64,000 bases of DNA from Proteromonas lacertae. Its lineage: Eukaryota. A model generated the notes under the pieces. The model searched no databases and was not told the DNA's origin. It was given only the letters and a program-made list of their open reading frames with translations. The position numbers and the translations under genes were made by a program. Position 1 is the stretch's first letter. Every line of letters starts with the position of its first letter. The DNA lies in NCBI GenBank assembly GCA_002245135.1, contig NGBS01000618.1, forward strand, positions 1-64,000, read 5' to 3'. This document shows, piece after piece, positions 1,865-30,368 of the stretch.

Positions 1865-4800
1865 ATGCCTTGTAACAAAAACAAGAAGTCTAGTGAACAT
1901 ATAGACCAAGAAATTATTAAAACCAAAAGTTCAATACAGCGACGGTAATATAGTTGTGGTTAGAGTAAATAGATTAATTGATTATATAGAATTTATGAAA
2001 ATATTGAGAGATAAAATCAATATTGTATCATTAGATGGATGTAAAATTAAAGTAGCTGACTTAATGTTGTACAAAATGAAAAATGATAAAGAATGTTATA
2101 TAACAGATATGAATGGTATATTATCTTCACAAGACAAATTTTTCCTTGCAAAAAGGAAAAAGAAACAAAGCGGAACTTTCGATTTTAGTAAATATGGTGA
2201 AGTAAACTATTTAATTCGAATAGTAAATAGTTTTAAAACAGACTTTGATTCAAATACCTTAGAAAATTGGATGAAATCGGCAAAGTTGTTTATTGATCGG
2301 TATTTGTATAAATGTATAATTGTAAGTGAAAATAATCCCAATCTTACATCATATTATCTCGCGCTCTTCTATATATTCTACAATGAATATAATTCAAACA
2401 GAATATATTGTGATATACTTCGAATTTTTAAATCTTTTGATAATTGTAAGAATATAATCACTTCATATACAATTAGTTTATGTGAAAAATATTCTAATGA
2501 GATATACGTTATAGGGATTGGTAATGATAAGGCAATAGATGATAATTTACTCCATTCTATTTGTTTTATTTCAGTATATCAAACAGATATAAAAAAGAAA
2601 TGGGATTATAATTCAATTAAAACAATCATAGATAAATTAACTCCACTTAAACATGTTTTATGTTCAGAATTACACACATATTACAGTATAATAAAGAATT
2701 ATTTAATATTTTATGATTCTGATATTAATTTGATTGAACAGCTTCCTATAATTCCAACAAATGAAGAAATACATTGCAATGAAGATTTGATATATTCTAT
2801 GCTTAGAGAGAATAAATTAAAAGACTATAACAGTGTTAGAGAATATTTAATAACTCATTATTTGTTATTGAGAGCAGATGTGTTATTGCCATTACAACAA
2901 ACTGTAACTGTATTATTTATATTATGAAATTTATATATATATATATATATGAATAGATTGCCTCTCTTTCAAAAGTAGATGGTAAGAATAGAATGTTTTG
3001 CTTCTCTTACAAGAACGTCAAGTGTAAATCATTTAATTTTGATAGTAGGAAAGGGTTGCTATATGAAATAGAGTTTGATAAACCATATGCTAAACTGAAA
3101 TGGAAATTTTCGTATATATATTTTCTAATTTGTAAATTATTTTTAGAAAACGATTAAAATATGGTGCTTTATTATGTTTAAGTAATGATAACTTTAAAAC
3201 ACTAATATGGTGTACTGTTGAAGATAGAAAAGAGTTGGAAAATGAAAAAGATAATAATAGCAAATCAAAAATTACAATAAAACTGTTAAATACAGGTGAA
3301 TCATTTTGTAGAATGTTGGATTATAAAATATTATATCAAATGGCAGAATCTCCAGAGATATTTTTTGAAGCATACGTATATATATTATTAATATAATTGA
3401 ATAGAAATATACTCTGATGTCTTTAAGCAAAAAATTATTAAATGCAGAATATAAATTACCATTCAAATCCAATTTAGTTGATGGAAAGAAGAAAATATCT
3501 TATCCATCATATATTAAACCATCAACTTCATATAAAATGAAATCTGTGTTTCCTGATTATGAACATCTTAGTATACTTGATAAATGGCCTAGTTATGAAG
3601 AATGCAAAAGTTTAGATGATAGTCAACTAGAAGCATTGAAGAACATGTTAACGAAAGAAATCAGTCTAGTTCAAGTATAATAGTATTAATGATATATTTA
3701 TATAGGGACCTCCAGGAACAGGTAAAACATACGTTGGTTCATTAGCGGTAAAAATTTTATTAGATAATCATAAATATAAAAGTCCCATTTTAATAGTTTG
3801 TTATACAAATCATGCACTGGATCAATTTCTTGAAACATTTACTGATGTGTTAAAACCAGGAGAATTAGTAAGAATAGGAGGTAGATGTAAATCAGAAAGA
3901 CTAGAAGAATATTCATATTATAATTCGAGTAAAAGGAATAGATACCGTTTAGACAGAGATTATGAAGAAATGAATAGACGTGTATTAAATATAAATCATT
4001 CATTTTGCTTATAGGTTTGTAAATTATCGTCTGAATTACATCAAACTTTTTCTGAATATAAGAAGAAAGCAGAAAAACCAATTAGATTTAGCGATTTATG
4101 TGATGCAGAAGTTATAAATAAAGAAGAGAAATACAATTTGAATGAACTAAAGCCACTTGATCCTCTTCCATATATCACTGCAGAAGAATTTAATAGAATT
4201 TATAAATCAAGCAAAGATATGCCATTAAATGATTTTATTGATAAAGAAAAGATGAGTTTATATAATGATCCTCTATACAAGTTCACTCATCAGGATGAGT
4301 TTTCAAAAAATAAGCTGATTAGAGAAAAAGAAGAAAAGAAGAAGAAAATGAATGAAATGTTTATTAATTGGTTCAACCAAGTACATTACTCAGAATATGA
4401 AATATCTATTGATATAAATGATGAGATCAAATTACACAAAGTTGATGAATTCTATAAGATTTATACAAAATACATTCCAAAATATGTAGAGATTTATAGA
4501 AAACACTTTGATCAATATATGTCAGTAGAAATAAAGAGTGGAATATGGCTATTAGAGCATAATGATAGAATTAATTTGAGCAACAAATGGATAAATAATT
4601 ATTATCATCAACAAAATGGAGATAAATTTAAGCAATTTGAAATCTATAAAGAATTATCAGAAAAATCGGAGATGATTAACTGTGAAATAGAAAGACAAAG
4701 ATTAAGAAATACAAAAATGATAGGAATGACAACTACTGGAGCAGCTAAATTAATAGATACCATTAATGAGTTAGGAATTGAAGTGATAGTAATAGAAGAA

Positions 4801-7800
4801 GCAGGAGAAGTATTAGAAGCTCACACTTTATCATTGTTGTGTGAATCATTGAAACATTTGATATTGATTGGAGATCATAAACAATTAAGACCTTCAGTAG
4901 TAAATTTCAATTTAGAGAATAAATATAATTTAACTAGATCGTTGTTTGAAAGATTAGTATTAAATGGAGTTGATTCAGTAATGTTAAAGACTCAAAGAAG
5001 AATGAGACCTGAAATATCTGACTTGATTAGATGTCCATCTTTATATCCAGACTTGAAAGATCATGAAAGTACCTTAAATCGAAGTAATATTCGTGGTTTA
5101 GTTTATAATGTTTATTTCTTTGATCATAATGCTCTAGAACCTGCATTTTATGAACAAAATGAAGAAAGTCATAGCAAAATAAATCCATATGAATGTAAAA
5201 TAATAATTCATTTTATGAAGTATTTACTTCAAGTAGGATATAACCCAGAACAAATAACAGTGTTAAGTTTCTATTTAGGTCAATGTCAATTAATATATGA
5301 AGAATGTAGTAAATTGTTAGGAATACAAACTTCAAAGAAATTTCGAATAATTGCTGTTGACAATTTCCAAGGTGAAGAAAATGATATTATAATTTTCAGT
5401 GCAGTTCGAAGTAATTTAAATAACAAAATAGGATTTTGTAGAGTAGAAAATCGAGTGAATGTTGCTTTATCTCGAGCTAAGAATGGTTTATTTATGTTTG
5501 GAAATATGGATTGTTTAATAAATGGAAGTCATAATCGAAGTGTATTTCCTGAAACGAATTTATGGGATTTTATAAAAGAAACATTGACTAAAAGAGATAT
5601 GATAGGAAAAAGTTTGCCATTAGTATGTCCAAATCACAACGATAGATTTTATTCAATTACAAAAGTTGAAGATTTTAAGAGATATTGTCCAACAGGAACA
5701 TGTGGTCAAATTTGTAAAAGAAGAATGAAATGTGGTCATAGTTGTAAATTGCGTTGTCATTTTGATGAATGTGAAATTCATTGTCAAGAACAATGTATGG
5801 AAATATTACCATGTGGTCATCAATGCAAAGGAAGATGTTCAAAATGTAAAAAGAATGAACTACATAGAAATTGTTTAGAATCATGTGAAAGAAATTTAAA
5901 ATGTGGACATAGATGTCAGAATAAATGTTCAGAAGAATGTACAAGTAAATGTATGGAAATGATAGATGTAACTCTTCCATGTGAACATAATAAGAGAATA
6001 CACTGTTATGAACAATACAATTTAGATATAATAAAATGTTTAAAGGTATATTTAAGTATATGAATATAATAAACATAGAATTGTAATAGGCAAATGAATT
6101 GTAATCATCAATGTAAAGGTAAATGCTATGAATGTAAAAATGGTCATATTGCTTGTTTAGAACCATGTGATAAAATGCTTTTATGTGGACATAAATGTTA
6201 TAATAAATGTTCAGAAGAATGTACAAGTAAATGTATGGAAATGATATATGTAACTTTTCCATGTGAACATAATAAGAGAATACACTGTTATGAACAATAC
6301 AATTTAGATATAATAAAATGTTTAAAGGTATATTTAAGTATATGAATATAATAAACATAGAATTGTAATAGGCAAATGAATTGTAATCATCAATGTAAAG
6401 GTAAATGCTATGAATGTAAAAATGGTCATATTGCTTGTTTAGAACCATGTGAAAGAAATTTAAAATGTGGACATAGATGTCAGAATAAATGTGGTGAAAA
6501 ATGTACAAGTAAATGTATGGAAATAGTAGATGTAACTCTTCCATGTGAACATAATAAGAGAATACACTGTTATGAACAATACAATTTAGATATAATAAAA
6601 TGTTTAAAGGTATATTTAAGTATATGAATATAATAAACATAGAATTGTAATAGGCAAATGAATTGTAATCATCAATGTAAAGGTAAATGCTATGAATGTA
6701 AAAATGGTCATATTGCTTGTTTAGAACCATGTGAAAGAAATTTAAAATGTGGACATAGATGTCAGAATAAATGTGGTGAAAAATGTACAAGTAAATGTAT
6801 GGAAATAGTAGATGTAACTCTTCCATGTGAACATAATAAGAGAATACACTGTTATGAACAATACAATTTAGATATAATAAAATGTTTAAAGGTATATTTA
6901 AGTATATGAATATAATAAACATAGAATTGTAATAGGCAAATGAATTGTAATCATCAATGTAAAGGTAAATGCTATGAATGTAAAAATGGTCATATTGCTT
7001 GTTTAGAACCATGTGAAAGAAATTTAAAATGTGGACATAGATGTCAGAATAAATGTGGTGAAAAATGTACAAGTAAATGTATGGAAATGATAGATGTAAC
7101 TCTTCCATGTGAACATAATAAGAGAATACACTGTTATGAACAATACAATTTAGATATAATAAAATGTTTAAAGGTATATTTAAGTATATGAATATAATAA
7201 ACATAGAATTGTAATAGGCAAATGAATTGTAATCATCAATGTAAAGGTAAATGCTATGAATGTAAAAATGGTCATATTGCTTGTTTAGAACCATGTGATA
7301 AAATGCTTTTATGTGGACATAAATGTTATAATAAATGTTCAGAAGAATGTACAAGTAAATGTATGGAAATGATATATGTAACTTTTCCATGTGAACATAA
7401 TAAGAGAATACACTGTTATGAACAATACAATTTAGATATAATAAAATGTTTAAAGGTATATTTAAGTATATGAATATAATAAACATAGAATTGTAATAGG
7501 CAAATGAATTGTAATCATCAATGTAAAGGTAAATGCTATGAATGTAAAAATGGTCATATTGCTTGTTTAGAACCATGTGAAAGAAATTTAAAATGTGGAC
7601 ATAGATGTCAGAATAAATGTGGTGAAAAATGTACAAGTAAATGTATGGAAATAGTAGATGTAACTCTTCCATGTGAACATAATAAGAGAATACACTGTTA
7701 TGAACAATACAATTTAGATATAATAAAATGTTTAAAGGTATATTTAAGTATATGAATATAATAAACATAGAATTGTAATAGGCAAATGAATTGTAATCAT

Positions 7801-10800
7801 CAATGTAAAGGTAAATGCTATGAATGTAAAAATGGTCATATTGCTTGTTTAGAACCATGTGATAAAATGCTTTTATGTGGACATAAATGTTATAATAAAT
7901 GTTCAGAAGAATGTACAAGTAAATGTATGGAAATGATATATGTAACTCTTCCATGTGAACATAATAAGAGAATACACTGTTATGAACAATACAATTTAGA
8001 TATAATAAAATGTAATGAAATTTGTGAAATATATTTACCATGTAATCATGTTGTAGAACGCTTCTGTTATGAAAATATAAACAAAAGTATATGTGAATGT
8101 AAACATCCTTGTGATATGTTATTAAAATGTGGACATGTTTGTAAAGGTACATGCTTTGAATGTAGAAATGGTCATATTAAATGTAGAGAAATTGTATATA
8201 AGAAAATTAAATGTGGGCATTTTAGAGAATATGAGTGTTTTATTTATAGAAAACATACTTTATTTTGTGGAGTATATTCTTTATTTATATAATCTTTAGT
8301 TTTTGTACAATTTTATTTCTAGTTTATCATATAAGTGTGAAAATCACTGTATGAAGATATTACCTTGCGGACATAATTGTCCTAATAAATGTTATGAACA
8401 TTGTCCATCAATTTGCAGGGTAGTTGAAGAAATAACCTTGCCTTGCAAACATTCAATCGAAGTAGAATGTAATGAAAAGTATAAAACATATATTTCACCA
8501 TGTAATATTGTGATGAGTAAAACATTATCATGTGGACATACAATACAGTATTTATGTTGTGAAAGAGACTCTAGAAAGTCATATTATTGTCCAAATCAAT
8601 GTGAAATCACATTAGATTGTGGTCATAGATGTAGAGGTATTTGTGGTGAGTGTGTTATGTGTAATAAACATAAGCTATGCAATGAACCATGTGATAAAAT
8701 GCTTTTATGTGGACATAAATGTTATAATAAATGTTCAGAAGAATGTACAAGTAAATGTATGGAAATGATATATGTAACTTTTCCATGTGAACATAATAAG
8801 AGAATACACTGTTATGAACAATACAATTTAGATATAATAAAATGTTTAAAGGTATATTTAAGTATATGAATATAATAAACATAGAATTGTAATAGGCAAA
8901 TGAATTGTAATCATCAATGTAAAGGTAAATGCTATGAATGTAAAAATGGTCATATTGCTTGTTTAGAACCATGTGATAAAATGCTTTTATGTGGACATAA
9001 ATGTTATAATAAATGTTCAGAAGAATGTACAAGTAAATGTATGGAAATGATATATGTAACTTTTCCATGTGAACATAATAAGAGAATACACTGTTATGAA
9101 CAATACAATTTAGATATAATAAAATGTTTAAAGGTATATTTAAGTATATGAATATAATAAACATAGAATTGTAATAGGCAAATGAATTGTAATCATCAAT
9201 GTAAAGGTAAATGCTATGAATGTAAAAATGGTCATATTGCTTGTTTAGAACCATGTGAAAGAAATTTAAAATGTGGACATAGATGTCAGAATAAATGTGG
9301 TGAAAAATGTACAAGTAAATGTATGGAAATAGTAGATGTAACTCTTCCATGTGAACATAATAAGAGAATACACTGTTATGAACAATACAATTTAGATATA
9401 ATAAAATGTTTAAAGGTATATTTAAGTATATGAATATAATAAACATAGAATTGTAATAGGCAAATGAATTGTAATCATCAATGTAAAGGTAAATGCTATG
9501 AATGTAAAAATGGTCATATTGCTTGTTTAGAACCATGTGAAAGAAATTTAAAATGTGGACATAGATGTCAGAATAAATGTGGTGAAAAATGTACAAGTAA
9601 ATGTATGGAAATAGATAGATGTAACTCTTCCATGTGAACATAATAAGAGAATACACTGTTATGAACAATACAATTTAGATATAATAAAATGTTTAAAGGT
9701 ATATTTAAGTATATGAATATAATAAACATAGAATTGTAATAGGCAAATGAATTGTAATCATCAATGTAAAGGTAAATGCTATGAATGTAAAAATGGTCAT
9801 ATTGCTTGTTTAGAACCATGTGATAAAATGCTTTTATGTGGACATAAATGTTATAATAAATGTTCAGAAGAATGTACAAGTAAATGTATGGAAATGATAT
9901 ATGTAACTTTTCCATGTGAACATAATAAGAGAATACACTGTTATGAACAATACAATTTAGATATAATAAAATGTTTAAAGGTATATTTAAGTATATGAAT
10001 ATAATAAACATAGAATTGTAATAGGCAAATGAATTGTAATCATCAATGTAAAGGTAAATGCTATGAATGTAAAAATGGTCATATTGCTTGTTTAGAACCA
10101 TGTGAAAGAAATTTAAAATGTGGACATAGATGTCAGAATAAATGTGGTGAAAAATGTACAAGTAAATGTATGGAAATAGTAGATGTAACTCTTCCATGTG
10201 AACATAATAAGAGAATACACTGTTATGAACAATACAATTTAGATATAATAAAATGTTTAAAGGTATATTTAAGTATATGAATATAATAAACATAGAATTG
10301 TAATAGGCAAATGAATTGTAATCATCAATGTAAAGGTAAATGCTATGAATGTAAAAATGGTCATATTGCTTGTTTAGAACCATGTGATAAAATGCTTTTA
10401 TGTGGACATAAATGTTATAATAAATGTTCAGAAGAATGTACAAGTAAATGTATGGAAATGATATATGTAACTCTTCCATGTGAACATAATAAGAGAATAC
10501 ACTGTTATGAACAATACAATTTAGATATAATAAAATGTAATGAAATTTGTGAAATATATTTACCATGTAATCATGTTGTAGAACGCTTCTGTTATGAAAA
10601 TATAAACAAAAGTATATGTGAATGTAAACATCCTTGTGATATGTTATTAAAATGTGGACATGTTTGTAAAGGTACATGCTTTGAATGTAGAAATGGTCAT
10701 ATTAAATGTAGAGAAATTGTATATAAGAAAATTAAATGTGGGCATTTTAGAGAATATGAGTGTTTTATTTATAGAAAACATACTTTATTTTGTGGAGTAT

Positions 10801-13800
10801 ATTCTTTATTTATATAATCTTTAGTTTTTGTACAATTTTATTTCTAGTTTATCATATAAGTGTGAAAATCACTGTATGAAGATATTACCTTGCGGACATA
10901 ATTGTCCTAATAAATGTTATGAACATTGTCCATCAATTTGCAGGGTAGTTGAAGAAATAACCTTGCCTTGCAAACATTCAATCGAAGTAGAATGTAATGA
11001 AAAGTATAAAACATATATTTCACCATGTAATATTGTGATGAGTAAAACATTATCATGTGGACATACAATACAGTATTTATGTTGTGAAAGAGACTCTAGA
11101 AAGTCATATTATTGTCCAAATCAATGTGAAATCACATTAGATTGTGGTCATAGATGTAGAGGTATTTGTGGTGAGTGTGTTATGTGTAATAAACATAAGC
11201 TATGCAATGAACCATGTGATAAAATGCTTTTATGTGGACATAAATGTTATAATAAATGTTCAGAAGAATGTACAAGTAAATGTATGGAAATGATATATGT
11301 AACTTTTCCATGTGAACATAATAAGAGAATACACTGTTATGAACAATACAATTTAGATATAATAAAATGTTTAAAGGTATATTTAAGTATATGAATATAA
11401 TAAACATAGAATTGTAATAGGCAAATGAATTGTAATCATCAATGTAAAGGTAAATGCTATGAATGTAAAAATGGTCATATTGCTTGTTTAGAACCATGTG
11501 ATAAAATGCTTTTATGTGGACATAAATGTTATAATAAATGTTCAGAAGAATGTACAAGTAAATGTATGGAAATGATATATGTAACTTTTCCATGTGAACA
11601 TAATAAGAGAATACACTGTTATGAACAATACAATTTAGATATAATAAAATGTTTAAAGGTATATTTAAGTATATGAATATAATAAACATAGAATTGTAAT
11701 AGGCAAATGAATTGTAATCATCAATGTAAAGGTAAATGCTATGAATGTAAAAATGGTCATATTGCTTGTTTAGAACCATGTGAAAGAAATTTAAAATGTG
11801 GACATAGATGTCAGAATAAATGTGGTGAAAAATGTACAAGTAAATGTATGGAAATAGTAGATGTAACTCTTCCATGTGAACATAATAAGAGAATACACTG
11901 TTATGAACAATACAATTTAGATATAATAAAATGTTTAAAGGTATATTTAAGTATATGAATATAATAAACATAGAATTGTAATAGGCAAATGAATTGTAAT
12001 CATCAATGTAAAGGTAAATGCTATGAATGTAAAAATGGTCATATTGCTTGTTTAGAACCATGTGAAAGAAATTTAAAATGTGGACATAGATGTCAGAATA
12101 AATGTGGTGAAAAATGTACAAGTAAATGTATGGAAATAGTAGATGTAACTCTTCCATGTGAACATAATAAGAGAATACACTGTTATGAACAATACAATTT
12201 AGATATAATAAAATGTTTAAAGGTATATTTAAGTATATGAATATAATAAACATAGAATTGTAATAGGCAAATGAATTGTAATCATCAATGTAAAGGTAAA
12301 TGCTATGAATGTAAAAATGGTCATATTGCTTGTTTAGAACCATGTGATAAAATGCTTTTATGTGGACATAAATGTTATAATAAATGTTCAGAAGAATGTA
12401 CAAGTAAATGTATGGAAATGATATATGTAACTTTTCCATGTGAACATAATAAGAGAATACACTGTTATGAACAATACAATTTAGATATAATAAAATGTTT
12501 AAAGGTATATTTAAGTATATGAATATAATAAACATAGAATTGTAATAGGCAAATGAATTGTAATCATCAATGTAAAGGTAAATGCTATGAATGTAAAAAT
12601 GGTCATATTGCTTGTTTAGAACCATGTGAAAGAAATTTAAAATGTGGACATAGATGTCAGAATAAATGTGGTGAAAAATGTACAAGTAAATGTATGGAAA
12701 TAGTAGATGTAACTCTTCCATGTGAACATAATAAGAGAATACACTGTTATGAACAATACAATTTAGATATAATAAAATGTTTAAAGGTATATTTAAGTAT
12801 ATGAATATAATAAACATAGAATTGTAATAGGCAAATGAATTGTAATCATCAATGTAAAGGTAAATGCTATGAATGTAAAAATGGTCATATTGCTTGTTTA
12901 GAACCATGTGATAAAATGCTTTTATGTGGACATAAATGTTATAATAAATGTTCAGAAGAATGTACAAGTAAATGTATGGAAATGATATATGTAACTCTTC
13001 CATGTGAACATAATAAGAGAATACACTGTTATGAACAATACAATTTAGATATAATAAAATGTAATGAAATTTGTGAAATATATTTACCATGTAATCATGT
13101 TGTAGAACGCTTCTGTTATGAAAATATAAACAAAAGTATATGTGAATGTAAACATCCTTGTGATATGTTATTAAAATGTGGACATGTTTGTAAAGGTACA
13201 TGCTTTGAATGTAGAAATGGTCATATTAAATGTAGAGAAATTGTATATAAGAAAATTAAATGTGGGCATTTTAGAGAATATGAGTGTTTTATTTATAGAA
13301 AACATACTTTATTTTGTGGAGTATATTCTTTATTTATATAATCTTTAGTTTTTGTACAATTTTATTTCTAGTTTATCATATAAGTGTGAAAATCACTGTA
13401 TGAAGATATTACCTTGCGGACATAATTGTCCTAATAAATGTTATGAACATTGTCCATCAATTTGCAGGGTAGTTGAAGAAATAACCTTGCCTTGCAAACA
13501 TTCAATCGAAGTAGAATGTAATGAAAAGTATAAAACATATATTTCACCATGTAATATTGTGATGAGTAAAACATTATCATGTGGACATACAATACAGTAT
13601 TTATGTTGTGAAAGAGACTCTAGAAAGTCATATTATTGTCCAAATCAATGTGAAATCACATTAGATTGTGGTCATAGATGTAGAGGTATTTGTGGTGAGT
13701 GTGTTATGTGTAATAAACATAAGCTATGCAATGAACCATGTGATAAAATGCTTTTATGTGGACATAAATGTTATAATAAATGTTCAGAAGAATGTACAAG

Positions 13801-15402
13801 TAAATGTATGGAAATGATATATGTAACTTTTCCATGTGAACATAATAAGAGAATACACTGTTATGAACAATACAATTTAGATATAATAAAATGTTTAAAG
13901 GTATATTTAAGTATATGAATATAATAAACATAGAATTGTAATAGGCAAATGAATTGTAATCATCAATGTAAAGGTAAATGCTATGAATGTAAAAATGGTC
14001 ATATTGCTTGTTTAGAACCATGTGATAAAATGCTTTTATGTGGACATAAATGTTATAATAAATGTTCAGAAGAATGTACAAGTAAATGTATGGAAATGAT
14101 ATATGTAACTTTTCCATGTGAACATAATAAGAGAATACACTGTTATGAACAATACAATTTAGATATAATAAAATGTTTAAAGGTATATTTAAGTATATGA
14201 ATATAATAAACATAGAATTGTAATAGGCAAATGAATTGTAATCATCAATGTAAAGGTAAATGCTATGAATGTAAAAATGGTCATATTGCTTGTTTAGAAC
14301 CATGTGAAAGAAATTTAAAATGTGGACATAGATGTCAGAATAAATGTGGTGAAAAATGTACAAGTAAATGTATGGAAATAGTAGATGTAACTCTTCCATG
14401 TGAACATAATAAGAGAATACACTGTTATGAACAATACAATTTAGATATAATAAAATGTTTAAAGGTATATTTAAGTATATGAATATAATAAACATAGAAT
14501 TGTAATAGGCAAATGAATTGTAATCATCAATGTAAAGGTAAATGCTATGAATGTAAAAATGGTCATATTGCTTGTTTAGAACCATGTGATAAAATGCTTT
14601 TATGTGGACATAGATGTCAGAATAAATGTGGTGAAAAATGCACTGATATGTGTAGAGCAGTAGTTACAGTACAACTTACATGTGGACATAATAAGATAAT
14701 ATATTGTTACCAACAGCATAATATGAGATGTGAAGAAGTATTATATTCTCAAATTTATATATTCTTATAGCCATGTGGAAACATACTTCCCTGTGGTGAT
14801 AAATGTCAGAATAAATGTTATGAAAAATGCACAACTGAATGTAAAGCAATAAAGAGAGTGAAACTTCCATGTCAGCATTATAAAAGAATATATTGCTATC
14901 AACAATACTATTTAAGAGATATTGCATGTGATGAGATAGTGAATGTGAAATTGAAATGTGGACATGTAGTTCAAGTTAAATGTCGTGAGAAAGAAAATAT
15001 TAAAAGAGAAGTATTAAATATTGTTATTTATTGTTTTAATAGAGATGCAAGGCAATGGTAAAAATTCCTTTAAATTGTGGTCATTATAAGGATGTAATGT
15101 GCTGTGAAAAGAATAAACAAACACATTGTGAAACAATGATTTATCATACTCTTCCTTGTGGTCATTCTAAACGAATCATGTGTTTTCAAAAGAATTATAC
15201 TCATATTAAATGTGAAGAAGAATGTGGAGCTATATTGCCGTGTAGACATAGATGTAAAGGAATATGTTATAAATGTCAACATTCTCATTTAAAATGTACA
15301 GAAGAATATAATTTGAGACTACCGTGTGGTCACTATAGAACAGTCATGTGTTTTCAACGTAGTTATACTAATTTAAAATGTAGAACTTGTAGGCATAGAT
15401 AA
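1865..15402 (+). CDS. ZNFX1: ZNFX1-like UPF1/SF1B RNA helicase with hugely expanded NF-X1-type Cys/His zinc-finger tail (multi-exon, roughly 4,100 aa by my estimate)
   Basis: Walker A (VQ|GPPGTGKT) is split by an intron near 3677-3705. Also present: VCYTNHALDQFLE, GMTTTGAAK, IEEAGEVLEAH, LIGDHKQLRP, QRRMRPEI, VDNFQGEENDIII and NVALSRAK, followed by C-x3-L-x-CGH-x-C repeats. The many 83-aa ORFs in the track join in frame once the 33-nt introns are removed. There is one +1 indel at ~9611-9615. Confidence 0.9.
5872..14640 (+). repeat. Tandem array of 282-bp units (33-nt intron + 249-nt exon), 22 intron copies, organised in a ~2524-bp higher-order repeat
   Basis: ORF starts recur every 282 bp (6094, 6376, 6658 ... 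14513). A unique block recurs at 8303, 10828 and 13352. The intron gtatatttaagtatatgaatataataaacatag (first copy 6046-6078) is identical in every copy I read. Confidence 0.97.
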
Positions 15403-15684: not shown

Positions 15685-17440
15685 ATGGCATCGTCATATG
15701 CTTTTTTTGAATATTCAAGAGAAGATGCTTTAGAAAAAGGATATGGTCAGAAGAGTATTTTTGCTTGTTTATTTTAGTAATTCGACCACCTTGGGCTGGA
15801 GGTAGATGTGTGTCTGCTCCACTTTTAAAAGTATTAAAAAATATATATGCAATATAGAATCAAATGTATTATTCAACAAAAGGCAATTCTTGGACAAATA
15901 AATATTTAACTCCAATTAATAGAAGAAAAGATCAGTTTGGTTATCGTCCTGATCTGGATGAATGTATGTCGATATTATATTTTATATAAATAGTTGCTAA
16001 AACAATGTATGAGAAAAAGAAAGAAGAAGAAGAAGTATAGTAGTTTTATTCTATACGTCTGTAATAGGAAAGAAAGGCTATGGAGATGGATCGATTGAAA
16101 AGTTTCAGACAAGCTCAATTGGATTTAATGAAAGAAAGAAGAGAAGGTCATGATGCAATAGATGTATAATAATTATTATTATATTTATAGTATTCTCGTG
16201 GTGGTGGTGGTGTTACAATAACACGAGATGAAAGACATCGAAAGAAATATATAGTAAAAGATAATTTATATTATCATGGAAGATGGAATAAATGGACAAA
16301 TTTATCACATATACCTGAGAATAGAATCCCTTTGTTATGTAGACCATATATAATAGAGAAAGATGAAGAAGCAGCTCGAACAATTGATAAGAAAAGGCAA
16401 GAAGAAGTAGAATATGAATATGCAAGACAAGATTATTTAGGATATTTAGCTGAAGAAGATAAAGCTCATTTAGATCATCAAAGAGCAGTAAGACAATCAT
16501 TTGAAGATAGTTTATATGGTCCTAATAGATGTAAATCACATCAACCAAAGTATAATATTAATATAATAATAATAATAATAGATGTTATACAGCAAGTGAA
16601 AGAACTGAAGCATTAGCTCAACCAAAGAATAAAATATATGATCCAAATGGTCCAGAAACAGCTGATTATACTGGTTTAATAACTACATCAACAGCAGCTC
16701 CTCAGATATATCAATCATTACATCGTCCTTATAAAGAAACAAATACAAAATATTCGTTAGATGATTGGATAGAAAGATCAAAAAGATCATCATCAACATC
16801 CTCCTCATCTAATAAGAAGAAGATGACATTAAGTGAACATAGTAGTGATATTCCATATAGTTTACCTGATAATGAAGAATATTCTGATGATGATATTCCT
16901 CCATTTAATGAATTATTAAATGATAATAATAGTAATGAAGAACAACAACAACAACGACAACATGAAGATTATAATGATGATGAAAATGTAAGATATATAT
17001 CACCAGATACAGAAGTAATTCCAACCAAAGTAGGTACAATGTTTGTGAATAGATCTGAATATCCCGAGCCAAAGAGTGTAATATCTCCTGATTTAGCTGA
17101 TAATGTATATCATAGTGTAAGTGAAACATCCTTAGAAAGAAATGATAGAATAGAAGGAATGAATCATATTGATGATTTATATAAACATTCAGCACCTCCA
17201 ATAGATAAAGGAGATGAAGTGAAGAATAGAAATCCCAAACCAATTCAAGAATATACTTCCCCAAGAGATTCTCCGAGATTGAATAAAACAAATAACAACA
17301 AAATTAGAAAACCATCATTTATTAGCAACTATTGGGAATATGTTGATAATGAGACAAAGAAGAAGGAAGATAAGAAGAAGAAAGAAGAACATTTACTTCC
17401 AATATTACAGAAATCTTATCCTCAAGGGCAGTTAATATAA
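15685..17440 (+). CDS. Hypothetical multi-exon protein, low-complexity C-terminus
   Basis: ATG at 15685 (MASSYAFFEYSREDALEKG...). About six short introns join track ORFs 16332-16616 and 16823-17440. One ASERTEALAQPK motif is weakly reminiscent of THEG-like microtubule-binding repeats, which is not enough for a call. Confidence 0.65.
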
Positions 17441-19777: not shown

Positions 19778-22700
19778 CTACATCTTCTGTAAAGAGTGGA
19801 TGAATTTATATGACAAAAATTTGTACATATCATAAGGTACAACTGCCAATACTCCCTTTCGTATATATTCTATACTAACATTATAACAGAAATGATATGA
19901 ATCAAAATCACCGTTAGATATAAGTTGATCAGTGTATGACTTAAACACTCCACTATTATTCTCATTCATACTATTAGTTAAAATATCAACATCAATATCT
20001 TCAACAGATAAACTATCATTAAACAGTAATTTCCAGAAATAAACAGGAAAATATTGAAGTATATCAAAACTTACTGATTCTAGTATTAATCCAATTAATA
20101 CACCTATTCCATAATAATCCTTTTCCAAATAAACACTCTTTCCGTTTATATTGATCATATATTTACCACTTCTATTACTAAATAAGTATTTATGATTCAT
20201 TGCTACATATAATATATAAGAAATTGATATTTGTTGATAAGATTGATTTAATATTGACAATGAATGAGTTAAAGCAGTTTTCTTACAGTTTGATATATTC
20301 CATATATTATTTAAGAATTGATGATAAACACAATTACATGAACTATCTTTTACTTTTATTGAATCATTCAACATTATAGTAACTAATGTCAACTTTGGAA
20401 AATATGAATAATAACTAACTATAATCGACTGGATAGTAGTAGTTGTTAAATAGTACTTTATTCCTTCACTAAATGGCATTTTTGAGATACTTAATACATG
20501 CTTATTACTTGTAGATACAATACTTTGGTTTAATCTTGATAAACAGTATATTCTAAAACATAAATGATATAGTAATCTCTTCTCAATTATTTCTTTCATT
20601 ATTTCTTTATCATTCTTCAACATATTATTAATTATGGATTGTTTATTTGATGTAATAAAATCAAATTTCATTATACATTCATCATATTTGTATTTCCATT
20701 CATCCCACTTATATAAGAATGAATATTTATCTTCTTGATCTTCTTTACAACACTCTATATCATCATTAACTACACATTCATTATCTTTAATCTCTACATT
20801 ATAACATGAAGATTTATAAACATCATAAAAGAATTCTTTTCTGTTATTCATTTTATCTTTGTATAAGAAATATTGAATGGTAGTATATAATTCATTTAAT
20901 AATTTATTATTATCATCTGATTCATGATGATGATGGTTCAGTTCATATAACAATTTTATACATTCTGATGTATTTACTAATTTTGAATTTTTACTCGAGG
21001 AAACTATACCTTTTGATTCTTCAGTGCAATAATAATAATAAGGATTATTATTATTATTATGTAAAACTGAATATAACTGTCTCAATTCAATAAATTTATC
21101 ACCATTTCCTTTCTCTACTTCTATTTCCTTATATTTATTATTAGCTGTTGATAGATTTAAATCATAATTTGATGGTATAAAATATAACAATGATGTTAAA
21201 CAGGATAGTATATTGTTATATTTATATAATGAATCATATTGGTTATTATATTCCTATATAATAATATAAATAATGAATAATATTATTTATATACTTTTAA
21301 TTTATAAACTTTGCTCACTACATTTGATTTCTTATTATGTAAAATGAATGAATTGAAATCATTATCTATCACCAATATATACCAATCATTACAATTCTGG
21401 TAAGTTAATGGTATTGAATATAAAATATTAGTTTCTTCTACCAAATCTTTCTTCACTAATGATGTATACTTGCAATTAATATCATATAAGTCACCTAATG
21501 AGACATATCCTATGTGACTATGTTGTCTTACAAATGGCAATTCATTCATCAACTTGTATGAATTTACACGCGATCTAAATATACCGTAAAAAAATAAGAA
21601 TTAAAGAAACAATAACAGAATGGTTATTAGAATATTCAAAAAAGAAAAAGATATAATATTTGAATCATTTATCATTACAGGTGATATACTATTTTGGTTA
21701 TTTGATAATTCTGATGGAATAATTGATTGATATATCGAATTATCACTCATTTTAGTGAATCTAATATCATTGGTTGATTCTAGTAAATCTGACTGTTGAT
21801 ATAATATATTCAGTGGTAATTCATTAATTGAGAATATGTATAAAGTATAACCATACAATGTATCTTTATCTTCTTCACAATCACAACTAAAATGAATATT
21901 CAATTCTTCAATATTACCTACTGGTATTAGATTCATTGGTTTATATTCATTCTTAAATTCATAAGAATTATCTTCAGTTTTGAAGGTTAAAACAGCACCT
22001 TCAGATAGTTTTAGTGTTGAGATGTATATATATGAATTTGGTTTTGTTATTGCTACATGTTCTTCATAATTACATTTCTTTGGATGATTATGGAATGACT
22101 CTGATAGATAATAATTACATTTATATTTCTTTAATGCTTCTTTCATTTCAATATCATACATTTTATTCAAAGTATCTTTATATCCATTCATTTCTTCATT
22201 GTTAGTTGTAGTTAGCAGTATATTCTTAAGATTCTTGTTTATTGATAATAAATACTTCATTTCAACTGTATCATTTCCATCTATTGACTTACAGTAATTC
22301 ATATAATATTTCGATAATATTTCTGGCTTCATATTATTCAATAATAAACACCTATTCATCAACTGCAACATATCTGAGTATATCAATTGATATATCTCAT
22401 TCATATTCACATCGTTAAATGATTTATTATTGAATGACATACATCTCAAATTAGATACTCTTTCATACTTCGGTATTATCATATTCAAACTATTATTCTC
22501 AATTTTCACTTTAACTGTATTTTCATCTTCGACTTCTATAGCTTTACCAAAGTATAATGAATCTTTATTACTATTTACTATCAAAACATTCTCATTAACA
22601 TCAACAACTTCTTTCTTTTTATTATAATCACTTTCAATGGTTGAGACTTTGATTAAATAGAATAATGATTCTTCTGGTTTAGTATAAGATTCTATTTTTT

Positions 22701-25700
22701 CTTCTATTCACATTTATAATAATAATAATAATAATAATAATATATACCATTATCACTTGAATTGGATTCTAAATAAACAGGATGACTTTCACTCAATAAT
22801 ACTGTAGCTAAATAAGTGGAAGTATTTAATGCAACAACCATATAATCAGCTTTATGATCTTCATATAGATATTTCAAATGAGTTTTATGTAAATAACAAC
22901 CATAACATACATTTGAATCTTTCAGATATTCTTTTAAAACAACAGGACAGAATATTTTATCACTAATATTATAATACAAATCATATGGCAAATCATTGAT
23001 AATTGTAGGTTTTAACTTTGGTTTTAATGATAATAGTTTATTCTCAAGATGCAATTCATTGATTAAATCATTTGATATAATATGGCTAGTAATATTATCA
23101 GAATAAACTATTGAACTATCTCTCTTCTTTAGTTCTAATACTTTGGGCTTTGTATATCGTTTTGGTATTTTCTTGTCAAATAAATCAGAATCATCAGAAT
23201 CATTATCATCATCTGATGGATCTGAGAGATTATTATGATTGGAACTATTTGAATCAAATACTGTACTGATATTGTGACCATCATCATCACCTAGACTATC
23301 ATCAATATAGAAATCTGAAGCAAACATCCTTAAATTGTTAATAAACGTATCTTCATCTTCATCATCAAATTCTTTACCATTATCACTTAATTCTTCATCA
23401 AATTCATCATCAAATTTCAATTGAACTGGTTCTTGCATTGTTAAGATTGGAGATGTATATGATCCGTATTTCTCTAAGATCTTAGTTTCATCATTTTCAT
23501 ACATCAAACATATAATCTTGGCTTGAGAGTAAGTTTTACAGAATTTTGAATTACTGATTTTAGCACATAAATCAGCTGAGAGATTTGTACAATCATATGG
23601 TCTACTGCCACTACCGTTATTTTCATCATTATCATCATCATTATCATAACTATTATATTCTGGTTTCTTTATTGATAATGGAAAACTATCCGTTATTCTG
23701 ACTTTTGATTGGTTGATCAAATTCAACATATATTCTATTAATTCTTCATTATATTGATTAGGTATAAAATCAATTACATTCTCATATTTATTGTAATAAT
23801 CATAAAGTGTGGTAATACTATTGAATAAATTATTCTTTTTGTTGTTATTATCATAATATTTGATATATCTATTCATAAATCTCATGATTAAGTTTTGTAT
23901 AAAACATTTTGTGACAGTTACTTCATTTATCTTTAATAACTCCATAAATACTTTGTGTATTTCTTCACTATGAATGATATATTCTGTGGGTAAATCATAT
24001 GTTATTGGTGGTTCTTCGACTATAGTCTCTTTGTTCAAATTCATACTATCAACATTATATTTCATCTTCCATATTGATGTATTACTATCTTTAATAATGG
24101 TGTTATTACTAAAAGTATATAATTCTAATACTCCAATAACAAATGGTAATGATTTGAGTGTAAATTTCTCTAAGATTAACTGTTGTAATTCATCTGAAAT
24201 TGGTTTAACTTTAAACATTATTCTCAATAACAATATAATGTTGTGAATGAACTTTATATTCACTATTTCATTATCATGTTTATTATTCAAACTATTACTA
24301 TAGTAATCTCCAATTGTATTAATAAACAATTCTAACAGAGAAGGTAAAGTATCAACCTTCTTATCCAATATATTCATATTCTTATATACTATAGAAACAT
24401 TCTTTATTACTAACAACTCTATTATATCAAATGATAATTGAGTTAAATAAGGAATGTTAAAATTCCAAACATTATATAAAAACTGAATCAAATTTACATC
24501 TACAATATCTTTCAATACAAGTTGTTGTCTTTTCAATTCATAATATAAATAATCTAAGAAATTGCTTAGATTAATTATGACTTTGGTTTTCATATTACTA
24601 TTTGTTTTTACATCTTTTATACTGTTATATAATATAATCTCTTTCATAATATATTCCTTAATAATCTTATTATTACCATTTCCTCTGTTACTACTATTAT
24701 CATTACATTGTTTCAATAATGAATATATTATATTTACTGATTTACTATATGATTCATAATAATAAAGTGTATCATTATTCTCTATCTCATTATCTATTAC
24801 TAATTTCTTATATTCTGATTCAGATACTTTGGTAGAATAACATAAACTACTTCCAATTGCAGTAATCATCTTCAATGTAAATATATTATTATCTTTTGCC
24901 TTATTGATTTGGTTAATATATTCCAACAGTTTCTCATAACTAATACCACTTAATAATACTTCAGCTGTTCCATTTATGGTGGATATATTTGTCTCTGGTA
25001 AAAAATATGATGGAGTGTTAAATATATATGATAATAACACTGATGGTGGATATAATATTCTGCTTCCTTCTATTAATGATAGTGTTGGATTAATATAATA
25101 ATTAGAATCAGTATAATCTTCTCTGATTTTACCAAAAAAATAATTATCATTTGGTTTTTCATTATTCTTTCCTGAATATTTGTGTTGGTAATAACTGTAA
25201 CTCAATAAATCAGAAATATCTTCATTTATTGATAACTTTCTAAAGTATTTATTATACAATTTTTCTCTTTTATAATCAATCATTCCATATATCATCTTAG
25301 TCATTTCATCATACTCATTCATTGACAATAAAGGTAATAACTTTGTACTAATATCACTGTTAATATATTTCTTAAAATAACTCAATAATTCAATCAATAC
25401 TTTAATCAACATATAATTATGTTTTTTTACTTCATTTAGTATTAAATCAACTAATATATTTGATATAAAAACAAAACCTTCTTCTTTCTCTTTATTATAT
25501 TCATAATAATCATTTGTATTAGATGAATAAACATATTTATAAACACTTTTAATGAAATGATCTAATTCATAATGAGATAAGTCTTTCATATAATCATTAA
25601 TAGATTTAACAAACTCAACTAATTCACCATTTTCTAATAACTTCACACCATAACGGAATGACTGAGCTATTGATTCAGTTAAACAATATAAAGATGAGAA

Positions 25701-28700
25701 TATAAATGGTATATCAGCTGTATTGTAATTCTGAATTGAGCATGATTGTACTGAAGCAGAATCACCAACTGTAACTAATTCTAATCCAATCATAAAAGGA
25801 AATGAATCTTGTGATTCTAATGGTATTGAAGAATTGCTACCAAATAAACATAACTGATGGTATTGGTTCAATTAACATATTGATACTTTTACCTCTCATA
25901 ATCAATTATTAATGTAATGACAATATCCCGTTTATTATTGTCAGTAATTTCAAATATTTTGTTATTTTTCTTAACTTTACCATTTGAATAGATGAACAAT
26001 TCACCTTTATTACTAATTTGATAGATTTCTTTCTCAGTGAAGAAGTTAATATAGCATCTTCCTACATTATTAGATGGAATTGTAATATTATAACAATGTT
26101 GATATGATTGAGGCAATATTGATTTTATCTCAACTTGTTCAAAGAATGGAACATTTACATTCTTTGCTATATTCAGAATTCTTATTACATGATTCTTCAT
26201 CTGGTGCTTCAGTATTAGGTTGTACACGATACACTGTTGATTTATCATTTGATAAAATAATATTATAATTATCATTGTCATGTTCCGCTGACTCATTGAT
26301 TTGAAATTTCACTGGTAAAATGGATTGAGGTGGATCAACCAATGAATTATTATTATTATTATTATTATTATATGTTACACATTCCAACAATATGAATTTC
26401 ATTCCACTACCTCTCGTAACTGATATTGATGGAATGATTCCAACTCCTTTATTAATTGGATATGAATCAATAGATGTAATGAGGAAATTATTTATGCAAA
26501 CTTTCAATTCACCTTTTATCCTATTAATATAGAATTCTAATATGTCATTATCACCTAATTCATGTTTATTATATATTGAAATCATCTTCTTCTTATCATA
26601 ATAAGATATATTCCATTTTAATTCTTCATTTACTCCAATTACTATATTATTCTCACTATTATCAATACTCTTAAATCCAAAAATACATTTTCCTTTCAAC
26701 TCTCTTATACAAATTGTATATTTTATTATATCATCATATGAAGGTTTAGTGTAATTCAATACTGATAGATTATTACTAATACATTCATATATAAAACTAT
26801 TACCATTATAACTATTGTTATTACTGATATTCCAATTATTGCTAAACTCTGTACCTTCACATGTAAAATACCCTATCTGTTGAATATCACTATCTTCATG
26901 ATATTTAATATTGATTATTGAATCATAATATTCCTTTGCGATTGGCTCCATCTCTTTATATTCATTCTTACACTCACATAGAGTAGTATAGATTGTATGT
27001 AAATATTGAATATTGACATTCTCATAAGGTAATGGTAAATTAGTGATAAATGAACATGTGGTATAGTGTAAATAGTTCTTCATTTTGATTGGATATTCTT
27101 TACATTCTTTAATATTTAATGATTGAACTGTACAGAAATTAGATAAACACTCTAAATACTTATCAAGACTTTTAGTTGGTGGAATTATACTATACTCAAA
27201 TCTTTGAATAAAGAATAATAAATGGAAGAATAAACTAGACTGTATGTCTCTTATATTACTAATTGATTTTGATTGGATGAAATTGTGGTAAATTCCTTCA
27301 AAATCAACTTCAATAAACCATTGAGCATTAACTAAATAATCAAATATTATCTCAATAAAATTATATAACAATGTTATTGTTGATTCATCTTTATCTATAC
27401 TCATTAACAATTGATTTACTCCATTATAATCTATCCAATGAGATACAAAGGTTAATAACAAGTCGATAGACTTTTTATATTCTTCATTAATATTACCTTC
27501 GTTACTTAATACTAATTTCAATGTATGAATACAGAAATTTAACGGATTTTGATTGGATATAAAATCTACACTTCCTTTAATGCAATCTATTAATTCATTA
27601 TTGATAAATGGATAGATTTCATTGTTATTATTCAACAATATAAACAATATATTATCTATCTTTAAGAATAATTCATAATATTCCTCTTCTTGGAGAGATT
27701 GAATTGTTGAATTACTTTTCTTATGATTATTATTGCTGTTGTTACTATTATTGTTAATATTATTTATCATATCAGAATAGGATTTATAGAATTGACATAT
27801 ATTCTTAAGTATTGATATAAATCTAGTTTCATTTTTAGATACATCATTTCTTTTATTCTCATTATCATTATTTACCATATTTAACATTTCATATAATATT
27901 TTCAAAGTATTTAAATCTGTTTTTAACAAGAATGTATCACTATCATCTACATTTTTACATAATTTTATATGACTAAACAAATAGTTTATTAAATCATCAC
28001 TATTCTGTATTTTACTAAAGAACATATCATTTCTTTCTTGACAAAATGCACAAACTATTGAATCAAATGGATTGATAAAACTACAGTTAGGACATTTATA
28101 ATAAAAGTTACCTTCAATTTCATCTTCATCAACGTTTACTTCATATTGTAATTTATCATCATGAAAATATAATATCTTTTCTAATAGCATATTATTTGGA
28201 TTTATATCTTCTTTAGTCTTTGCTTCTGTATTTGCTGTTGCTGTTGTTGAAGAAGAAGAAGAAGATGATGATATTGGTGATGCTAAAGCAACATATCCTT
28301 CTAATTTATCATCTTTCCAATAACCATAATAATATTTATTAATTCCTTTCAATTTAGCAACGCCAGCACCATATTTCTTCTTATTACGTAATTGACCAGT
28401 CCAATTTTCTCTTATTTCTTCATTCTTTACATCATAATTCAATGTTGTTATTCCCGTTACTGGTGATTCACATGTTATTGATCTTATTTCGATTTTTCTT
28501 GTTTTACCATAGAAACAGACTGCTGGATAAACAGTTGGATATAAATCTACAAATCCAATAGCTGGTTCACTATTATTTACTGAAAAATATAATTTCTTAG
28601 CATCCATATCAAAAGTAACATTTACTACATCATTCGAATGTATTTTACTTATCTTATCTTGATGATTTCTTCCGTATAATGAACCATTATAACTTCTTAA

Positions 28701-30368
28701 CATCATCAATTCTTCACAATCATTATATTTACCATTAGATGGAGGCCATTTAGCACAACCAAAGGCAGTACATTCATCACCCATTGTATCTTCTAATAAT
28801 ACGAATTGTACAAGCCATTTACCACTACTGATTGGGAAATCAATTGCTACACATGAACTTTCACTTGAATTAGATGTTGCTACATGATTATTTTGACTAA
28901 ACTCTACATCAGCACCAACTACATACCTTTCAGAGAAGCACGCATCTAATATCTTTGGACCATCGATTGGTTCAATATCTTCAAGTATCGTTGAACATAA
29001 TCTCTTAAAATAAGGTTTACATTCACCATATAGATTATCACCATTCTATTTATTATTAATATAATAATATCTATATTTTATACTTTCATTAATTCCTCAA
29101 TCAATTGTAACAGTATTGCTGAATTACCACTTACTTGAGCTAATACACATAATGTATTTATTGAATCACATTTCAACTCATCAAATCCAAGACAATAAAT
29201 GAGAAATTTACTGATATGACTAAATAAACTGGAAGGATCACAGGAATATTTTGATTTACTGGATTGATATAATAATAAACTATCTATTTTATATTCATCT
29301 GAACAATCGATTGTTATATCTATTTCACTTACAAAACTATTGATTAATATCTTTTGACAGATATTATTTCTCTTTATTATATCACTTTCTGGTTCAATTC
29401 GAATTGATTCTTTCTTATTTTTATTATTGGTTATTATGACTATTACTACTTCAGGTATTTTACTCCATTTTATTTCTAATGATGAGATTTTCTCTTTTTC
29501 ATTATAACAGATTCTTAATTTTGTATTTCTGTTGATTATATTTTGTTCTAAATCATTTATACAACTCAATTCTTCGTTTGTTTCACTTTGATAATGTAAT
29601 TCATAATCTGATTTTCCTATTAATGTCTCTGAAGGTATTGCTGAGATTTCTAATTCATTTAATAAGGAATAATCTTTGTATATCTTTAATAAATCCAATA
29701 AATGGTTAATTATTGGTTTTAACAACTTTTGATCACAATTCAGATTGTCGATTATTGTTTGAAAACTTCTATAAACAATAAATTGATGTAAGTATAGGAA
29801 ATATACATCAAACAAAGTCGATGAACTGGGAAATTCTGTGAATCTGGAATATGAATATATCTCAAAGCATCATTTTCATCCTATTATATTATTAATACAT
29901 TTAATACATTCATATTCTTAGAATAGCATTTAGCTGCACTACATCTCAACAAAAAACCTAATTCCTCTTTACTTATTGTTGATATATCATCATCCTATTA
30001 TAAATTAAATAGACAATATTACGTATATACTTCATATAGAGTATTTCTAACTGCATTACAATAATTGTGGTAGAAATCGATTGTACTATCCAAATCAAGT
30101 TGATACGATTTTATATTCTCTATCTCTTCATAAACTTTCACAGTGGGATGACATATTATGCTCTCTATAATTGAAGTTGAATTACTGCCATTCAGTATCT
30201 ATATGCAGATTAGTCATATTAAAAATATACTTCATGTTTCAATTCCGTGGATTCTACATATTCTTTCCATCCACAACCATATTTACAGGGAGCTCCACAT
30301 TTTCTACATAAATCTCCTCCACTATGCAGATATGGTAATAAATTAAGCACAAATGTGCTTTTCTCCAT
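19778..30368 (-). CDS. Giant HERC/HECTD-like protein: SPRY domain(s), RanBP2-type zinc finger, acidic region, C-terminal partial HECT (N-lobe only)
   Basis: SPRY motifs EDTMGDECTAFG...MLRSYNGSLY...FDMDAKKLYFSVN...VYPAVCFYG. Zinc finger CPNCSFINPFDSIVCAFC. HECT N-lobe-like YGIGVLIGLIL...FPVYFWKLLFNDSLSVEDID and IRKGVLAVVP. Consecutive minus-strand ORFs are separated by intron-sized gaps. ATG at 30368. A single-gene model is inferred. Confidence 0.7.

Follow-up and report, generated by a model that had tools for sequence, protein, structure and literature searches.

A predicted ZNFX1-family helicase gene with a probably very recently lengthened zinc-finger arm in Proteromonas lacertae

The ZNFX1 family of helicases includes Caenorhabditis elegans ZNFX-1 and Schizosaccharomyces pombe Hrr1, which take part in small-RNA inheritance or amplification and belong to germ-granule or RNA-directed RNA polymerase (RDRC) complexes. 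In a 64,000-nucleotide (nt) stretch of DNA from Proteromonas lacertae (positions 1 to 64,000 of contig NGBS01000618.1, assembly GCA_002245135.1; hereafter the window), we found a predicted gene on the forward strand that would encode a helicase of this family followed by a very long arm of zinc fingers. On balance, we favor the reading that this is a gene for a ZNFX1-family superfamily 1 (SF1) helicase whose NFX1-type arm was lengthened very recently, most likely by unequal recombination of exon-plus-intron units.

Recent reports on human ZNFX1 describe an arm with twelve zinc-finger motifs in about 300 amino acids (aa) (PMC13710534), which forms a rigid stalk that joins the helicase to a C-terminal ubiquitin-ligase module composed of a Miz-like part and an RZ finger (10.1101/2025.10.14.682297; PMC13710534; 10.1101/2025.09.05.674436). 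In these reports, the arm makes finger-finger, finger-ARM, and finger-helicase contacts in filaments, and patient mutations in its zinc ligands are deleterious (10.1101/2025.10.14.682297; PMC13710534; 10.1101/2025.09.05.674436). The arms link filament strands laterally and stabilize filaments and polymers (PMC13710534), and the work of 2025-2026 presents the rigid stalk as an element that is needed in patients and helps polymerization (10.1101/2025.10.14.682297; PMC13710534).

The P. lacertae gene resembles human ZNFX1 in several respects: it possesses the ZNFX1 domain and a UPF1-like SF1 core with conserved motifs, its fingers follow directly after the helicase, and the predicted finger fold matches human arm residues 1288-1364. 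It also differs in several others. The predicted arm is about 2,960 aa long compared with about 300 aa in the human protein, a roughly tenfold difference, and it is built of near-identical exon-intron units; identity over the helicase is limited to about 35-40%, no RZ finger was detected, and no ARM domain is detectable by sequence.

The assignment to the ZNFX1 family comes primarily from the helicase. In Pfam searches, AAA_11 is split over two exons, AAA_12 is matched at E 1.4e-40 (139 bits), and the match to the ZNFX1 domain PF25396 covers profile positions 44-106, with the remaining N-terminal part of that domain in the preceding exon (2957-3111). Both RecA lobes and the ATPase motifs of the UPF1-like SF1 core are present, and the helicase is intact. 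When the helicase exon was compared with solved structures, the best match was ZNFX1 (9q9z_A; E 2.1e-81, 277.6 bits), followed by UPF1 (94.4 bits, E 5.7e-26) and then by Aquarius, SEN1, IGHMBP2, and DNA2. The alignment with human ZNFX1 (9q9z) takes in the motifs GMTTTGAAK, EEAxEVLEAHT, LIGDHxQLRPS, QxRM, VDxxQGEENDII, and VALSRAK, shows conservation of the ATPase and RNA-binding motifs, and runs on into the first zinc fingers. By pairwise score, the predicted gene belongs to the ZNFX1 family, lying nearer to ZNFX1 than to UPF1, Aquarius, SEN1, IGHMBP2, or DNA2. An initial annotation of this DNA had called an intact helicase core of the ZNFX1 family, and both calls are upheld by the PF25396, AAA_11, and AAA_12 matches, by the alignment of the motifs with human ZNFX1, and by the difference in score between ZNFX1 and UPF1.

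Directly after the helicase begins a Cys/His-rich coding sequence that measures 9.76 kilobases (kb; about 5641-15402), the conceptual translation of which, at 2,962 aa, contains 514 Cys (17.4%) and 178 His. Tandem Repeats Finder reported a period of 282 nt in 31.2 copies (5871-14629). The core of the array (6046-14497) consists of units made of a 249-nt phase-0 exon (83 aa) and an identical 33-nt GT..AG intron, and this intron occurs as an exact 33-mer 22 times through the array. Aligned by their 282-nt period, the units sort into two main types sharing 93% identity, together with a diverged segment that recurs every 2,524-2,525 nt. There are 18 free 83-aa module exons (seven A, nine B, one C, and one D), which make up about half of the tail (18 x 83 = 1,494 of 2,962 aa), while the remainder is formed by a two-exon block of 351 aa that is present three times and by unique first and last fingers.

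Modules and blocks are arranged in higher-order repeats, with three complete copies and a partial fourth (Table 1). Copy 1 equals copy 3 plus one extra 282-nt unit with 0 mismatches, the single difference between copies 2 and 3 over 2,524 nt is an extra A, and the three 1,114-nt diverged segments are identical to one another, with 0 substitutions between higher-order copies overall. By comparison, modules A and B differ at 19 nucleotides, all located within exon nt 93-178, and the remaining exon and the intron are identical; at the protein level, 12 residues differ and every Cys and His is kept. Module C is chimeric, with a B-like head and an A-like tail, module D is B with one additional base, and module F, which closes the single-copy first fingers, is a further mosaic and is likely the source of the center of the B-type module.

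The initial annotation had described this tail as about 9.7 kb of finger-coding sequence with near-zero divergence between modules and hence a very recent expansion, and these points agree with our measurements. It had further described the tail as built mostly from two variants of an 83-aa module and as roughly 3,000 aa long after splicing. The two variants correspond to modules A and B, but the free modules account for only about half of the tail, and the higher-order repeats of about 2,524 nt had been missed. Likewise, the length agrees with the conceptual translation, but the extra A, which had also been missed, limits the open reading frame (ORF) as assembled to 2,404 aa, as discussed later. 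The initial annotation also passed over the lack of a detectable RZ finger or ubiquitin-ligase module.

The fingers themselves were characterized by descent and by predicted fold. Both the module exons and the block exons give multiple alignments to the tail of a ZNFX1-like relative, P0012 (best E 6e-24, 38% identity), and the distal unique exons align to finger regions of relatives. For the 184-aa exon of the block, an AlphaFold2 (AF2) model built from an alignment of 19 short relatives reached a predicted local distance difference test score (pLDDT) of 81.3. The top two matches of this model in a Foldseek search of the PDB were chain sh of 7zw0, a FAP-80S entry (E 8.2e-4, probability 0.99), and ZNFX1 9q9z (E 0.16), and these were also the only two of 246 chains with Z ≥2 in VIA-align: 9q9z with Z 6.5 and a root-mean-square deviation (rmsd) of 2.1 Å over 57 residues at 37% identity (chain residues 1288-1364), and 7zw0_sh with Z 5.1 and an rmsd of 6.1 Å over 105 residues. 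Fap1 is described as a yeast relative of NFX1/NFXL1 and a ribosome-binding (80S) ubiquitin ligase (PMC12008924). Like the arm described here, NFX1 and Fap1 possess an array of NFX1-type fingers; unlike the P. lacertae protein, Fap1 is without a helicase, and chain sh appears to be Fap1 judging from the title of the entry.

It is worth noting that a number of results weigh against our reading, several of which concern the identity of the fingers. Among the profiles that the initial annotation had named for a check, AAA_11 and AAA_12 match the helicase, but zf-NF-X1 (PF01422) matches none of the eight finger pieces even at E ≤10. At the same threshold the RZ finger (PF20173) is absent from the three distal exons and the five other finger pieces, which leaves the analogy with the human protein incomplete, and the scan returned only chance-level matches to zf-RING_2 (E 8) and Acyl-ACP_TE (E 0.084). 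A phmmer search with the 167-aa exon gave 0 matches in the PDB at E ≤1, and the fold matches described above are middling (Z 5-6.5). Pfam likewise found no finger family on the tails of four relatives, and because these tails also match nothing, the Pfam finger profiles seem to be blind to this branch. The nearest ESM Atlas clusters provide a lead only: PF26600 (zf-CHCC_shd) occurs on 14-48% of their members, and one cluster has PF01422 on 26%. PF26600 or PF26601 (zf-CHCC_ins) also appears in the precomputed family lists of some relatives, while the Pfam copy used here gave neither, even for P0004, which has PF26600 in its precomputed list. Judging from the models and alignments, we regard the fingers as NFX1-type in fold and descent, though not by Pfam profile.

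Other results on the opposing side concern the conservation of the gene. A search with the helicase exon among proteins of near length (372-1,185 aa) returned two proteins at E ≤1e-120, each with 45% identity, and no closer orthologue turned up in this range, whereas the IFT80 gene of the same window has a match at 96%. In addition, the differences between A and B comprise 17 nonsynonymous and 2 synonymous changes, a pattern that would fit either selection for variety or an absence of constraint. Finally, the ORF as assembled ends at 9635 after 2,404 aa, and the open frame over the distal 5.2 kb gives no independent sign of selection, since this part exactly duplicates sequence lying upstream.

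The break in the frame deserves closer consideration. The extra A at 9615 lies outside any homopolymer run (ATAG-A-TAGATG compared with ATAGTAGATG in the sister copy), within the exon at 9449-9698. Without it, the predicted protein would have 4,153 aa, and 1,728 codons are open from the exon after the break to the end. If the frameshift is real, translation would yield a helicase of 2,404 aa whose arm measures about 1,200 aa, leaving the distal 5.8 kb as an untranslated young minisatellite derived from coding sequence; alternatively, the whole gene would be a newly dead pseudogene. The position of the extra base outside a homopolymer and the stop that follows at 9635 are consistent with such a lesion, and the arm that would remain, obtained by subtracting about 1,190 aa from 2,404 aa, would be near the tails of long-tailed relatives, which measure about 1,150-1,340 aa. 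The identity of the repeat copies, which cannot demonstrate constraint, and the lack of a close orthologue of the helicase exon in the range searched point the same way. A real frameshift, however, would cost the gene its unique distal exons, which show no damage, come with regular GT..AG introns, and can be aligned to the fingers of relatives, and it would be the single lesion in 13.5 kb; skipping the affected phase-0 exon of 83 codons would, in addition, restore the frame. Residual indels are also a frequent assembly error in exact repeats, where polishing reads map ambiguously. We therefore consider a real frameshift possible but unlikely. The extra A is more likely an unpolished assembly error in the repeat than a real mutation, although the two are not distinguishable from the sequence.

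The same lack of divergence raises the question of whether the array has been assembled faithfully. Here, the array would be real and its length or order an artefact, through over-expansion, collapse, or homogenization during polishing, so that the true number of modules would be different and perhaps ordinary. The 0 substitutions over about 8.4 kb of repeats would be expected on this account, as consensus polishing can homogenize copies, and the one stray indel would also fit; moreover, the gene's own product was neither among the proteins of 1,186-3,385 aa searched nor among the representatives in the module search described later. By contrast, the irregular order of the modules (ABBCAB / ABDAB / ABBAB / AB), the clean one-unit indel, and the chimeric module look biological, and a span of about 8.5 kb is within ordinary long-read length. 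The remaining 48.6 kb of the window contain no other large tandem repeat, and the assembly is for this reason not generally repeat-inflated. Taken together, we rate an artefact of this kind as quite unlikely.

In the favored reading of a recently lengthened arm, the structure of the unit itself suggests how lengthening could proceed. Because each module is a phase-0 exon of 249 nt with the same 33-nt intron, the gain or loss of units would keep the frame, and the arm could grow or shrink like an accordion. The chimeric module C, the mosaic module F, and the identical copies fit repeated unequal crossing-over or conversion across the intron, too recent for point substitutions to have accumulated. 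Unequal recombination of phase-0 exon-intron units is thus a well-supported mechanism for the expansion, as far as can be read from the repeats, and the gene would exemplify the expansion of a coding repeat by unequal recombination with such units, the frame remaining unbroken. A comparable arrangement exists in human LPA, where kringle IV-2 is a multi-exon tandem coding unit with near-identical, frame-preserving copies and documented copy-number variation between individuals. The array described here is analogous to it as a frame-preserving tandem unit, although the protein family is unrelated.

Overall, the gene may be regarded as an extreme variant of the known ZNFX1 type, with a protein size and function that we infer. 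By analogy with human ZNFX1, the helicase would bind single-stranded RNA and move along it, and the arm would be a long, stiff, multivalent zinc-finger rod used for self-association or for scaffolding and clustering RNA-protein assemblies; the stabilization of filaments and polymers by the human arm, noted above, is the basis of the scaffold analogy. Since the Pfam scan of the finger pieces detected no RZ finger or other ubiquitin-ligase (E3) domain, the protein would function with no ubiquitin-ligase step of the kind that vertebrate ZNFX1 has. The ORF continues for 119 aa past the last intron and ends in sequence resembling fingers, and there would appear to be no space after the fingers for a module of about 480 aa composed of the Miz-like part or Z-RING and the RZ finger. 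Downstream of the gene, two ORFs on the forward strand (16191-17440; 141 and 292 aa) are of low complexity, rich in N, D, E, and K, and without an assigned family, and they are not a detached E3 module.

A bolder version of this reading would make the gene a true accordion, that is, a copy-number-variable rod of >100 fingers on an E3-less helicase. The length of the rod, or the mix of A and B as altered by exon skipping, would be adjusted on short evolutionary timescales and would set how far RNA-silencing or RNA-quarantine assemblies reach, or their valency, in a conflict with RNA parasites. We consider this version doubtful and of low probability. The initial annotation had put forward, as a hypothesis, a role in RNA defence and a possible tuning of avidity or of the length measurement of bound RNA or partners. 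On the favored reading, a natural protein with the same helicase, an arm about 10 times as long, and no ubiquitin-ligase end would offer a test of the effects of arm length and valency; a mis-assembled array or a dead gene would leave a repeat curiosity only.

The modules might also be viewed as cassettes, with alternative splicing of A and B varying the length and the surface of the arm and thereby the recognition of varied RNA parasites or partners. In agreement with this, each of the 18 free modules is a phase-0 exon of 249 nt, the introns on either side do not differ, and the 12 residues that distinguish A from B, with their 17 nonsynonymous and 2 synonymous differences, lie between conserved Cys and His. 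However, the diversity on offer is small, being limited to two main variants, the chimeric C, and the frameshifted D; the introns are identical, and no regulatory sequence tells them apart; and the ratio of nonsynonymous to synonymous change is based on 19 sites. This makes a cassette function highly improbable.

To place the favored reading of a very recently lengthened arm in a broader context, we compared the gene with long relatives, searching proteins of 1,186-3,385 aa and analyzing the best 120. These are 33-41% identical and are mostly annotated as "NFX1-type zinc finger-containing protein 1-like" from echinoderms, molluscs, cnidarians, and insects, with many others of about 2,400-2,600 aa. 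The tails that follow their helicases have a median length of 870 aa and a median of 14 CGH motifs, the largest values being 1,807 aa and 40 motifs, and RZ (PF20173) appears in the precomputed lists of 18 of the 120. The statement in the initial annotation that ZNFX1 proteins normally carry only a handful of fingers is therefore incorrect, given these tails and the twelve motifs reported for the human protein (PMC13710534). P0012 (2,517 aa) and P0004 of Actinia tenebrosa (3,355 aa) are examples of the long-tailed ZNFX1-like proteins of invertebrates and other eukaryotic contigs, whose helicases are 35-40% identical to the one described here and whose Cys-rich tails of about 1,000-1,800 aa, with 20-40 CGH motifs, are homologous to its modules. 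Unlike the array in P. lacertae, their repeats are either old and diverged or limited to about 1.5-4 near-identical copies. By contrast, the predicted P. lacertae arm has about 25-31 units, including three copies of the 2.5-kb block, without substitutions, and is 1.6 times as long as the longest tail in the compared set.

Internal duplication was surveyed in 245 relatives of at least 300 aa by an ungapped sliding window of 60 aa. Such a window recurred elsewhere in its own protein at 90% identity or more in 21 of the 245, and at 70% or more in 39. In two of these 21 the offsets are of gene length; both resemble fused gene models and were left out of the span count; the remaining 19 contain a near-identical periodic stretch of about 1.5-4 copies. 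In P0118, P0101, P0013, P0005, P0163, P0086, P0010, P0009, and others, 2-4 near-identical tandem finger units are found at offsets of about 50-180 aa. Duplication within the finger arm thus seems to be a recurrent habit of the ZNFX1-like family, or of its gene models.

A query with the module against 1.84 billion representative proteins gave 425 matches at E ≤0.001, and among the best 150 of these the largest number of matched stretches was 14 and the greatest protein length 2,587 aa. The best module identity among the matches listed was 54-55%, to short fragments. The 174-aa protein P0123, which comes from a different source, shares 54% identity with the module over query residues 6-82. In an alignment with the 552-nt exon, it follows most of the module-plus-extension layout of the 501-nt exon, which suggests that this layout is older than the amplification and that its single-copy form is ancestral. 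A full-text literature search of a limited collection found no publication on amplified ZNFX1 finger arrays. Judged by these comparisons, the rarity of such a long array is indicated rather than proven.

The gene model was built from the sequence, with an ATG at 1865, a TAA stop at 15400-15402, and the standard code. It comprises about 34 exons and 33 introns of 19-53 nt, the splicing being read from the DNA, and GC content is 15% in the predicted introns compared with 27% in the exons and 25% throughout the window. The first predicted intron (1945-1963, 19 nt) is doubtful, and the intron at 8272 may be 28 or 64 nt long. Under the standard code, a 682-codon open frame (4015-6063) is followed by regular frames of 88 codons every 282 nt. 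The ciliate code (table 6) was rejected, as it leaves no long frame on the forward strand over the array, whereas the standard code with short introns fits. No additional copy of the module or the helicase is present in the 64-kb window outside this gene. The features of the gene are summarized in Table 1.

Table 1. Predicted features of the ZNFX1-family gene and its repeat array in the window
Feature	Coordinates	Strand	Evidence
Whole predicted gene, ZNFX1-family helicase with amplified zinc-finger arm	1865..15402	+	Gene model, Pfam, stop codon
Tentative first exon with start ATG	1865..1944	+	Read from sequence; alternative start ATG at 1995
N-terminal exon, 313 aa	1964..2903	+	Last ~95 residues collinear with human ZNFX1 385-473
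ZNFX1 domain PF25396, C-terminal part	3136..3393	+	Pfam E 3.2e-12, 46.8 bits, cut-off 27
Walker A (GPPGTGKT) exon, start of helicase lobe 1A	3706..3981	+	Pfam AAA_11, AAA_19, ResIII
Helicase core: remaining AAA_11, insertion, AAA_12 (lobe 2A)	4015..5640	+	Pfam, PDB match, alignment
Single-copy first fingers, same exon as helicase, ending in module F	5641..6045	+	Align to human ZNFX1 first fingers, chain residues ~1370-1430
Predicted 33-nt intron, GTATAT...ACATAG, 15% GC, in-frame stops	6046..6078	+	Identical sequence occurs 22 times through the array
Higher-order repeat copy 1, 2,806 nt: A B B C A B, 501-nt exon, 552-nt exon	6046..8851	+	
Higher-order repeat copy 2, 2,525 nt: A B D A B, 501-nt exon, 552-nt exon	8852..11376	+	
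Extra A at 9615, frameshift, premature stop 9635-9637	9615..9637	+	Comparison with sister copy
Higher-order repeat copy 3, 2,524 nt: A B B A B, 501-nt exon, 552-nt exon	11377..13900	+	
Partial fourth copy: modules A and B with introns	13901..14497	+	597/597 nt identical to copy 3 start
Unique distal finger exons (240, 240, 360 nt) and stop codon	14498..15402	+	GT..AG introns

The 313-aa N-terminal exon, including its first approximately 217 aa, matches no Pfam family, and its sole match in the PDB is a weak one to 9q9z (E 0.048) that covers the last ~95 residues. A single-sequence AF2 model of the exon was unusable (pLDDT 35.1). The first approximately 217 aa could be a divergent ARM domain.

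Long open frames are also present on the reverse strand over the array (5675-8176, 8655-10701, 11180-13225, and 13704-14663), reaching up to 833 aa. The 833- and 681-aa ORFs were taken as composition noise, with only a near-threshold match to Lactococcin_972 and no stretch passing. These frames are most likely a by-product of the repetitive coding strand, which is skewed toward G over C (GC skew 0.35-0.38).

A search of the whole window against Rfam gave 0 matches. Several other genes are present in the window. IFT80 (33234-35582, reverse strand) is intronless and encodes 783 aa with both beta-propellers and the tetratricopeptide repeat domain. Its closest matches are at 96% and 81%, followed by green algae at 43-46% and then by algae, oomycetes, and animals at 40-45%. 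These IFT80 matches suggest that the host is a flagellated or ciliated eukaryote, and the protist host proposed in the initial annotation is compatible with them, the best named matches being green algae and no animal or ciliate being prominent. An animal host with tiny introns, such as a dicyemid or orthonectid, was considered on account of the short introns but is not supported by the IFT80 matches. A run of abutting or overlapping ORFs of 491, 368, 1,055, 139, 968, and 263 aa on the reverse strand (19781-29869), with one Pfam match (SPRY/Neuralized-like), probably represents a single giant gene that tiny introns or frameshifts interrupt. Ankyrin, SPRY/Neuralized-like, and leucine-rich repeat proteins are also encoded in the window, and a 1,135-aa open frame (48714-52118, forward strand) has no Pfam family at E ≤0.001. 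On the forward strand, a 528-aa ORF (56330-57913) with DUF659 and a hAT-family dimerization domain is hAT transposase-like and possibly a mobile element or a domesticated copy. Also on this strand, an ORF at 43650-44453 contains a region similar to mitochondrial ribosomal protein S22 (E 2.3e-7), which suggests that the organism keeps a translating mitochondrion.

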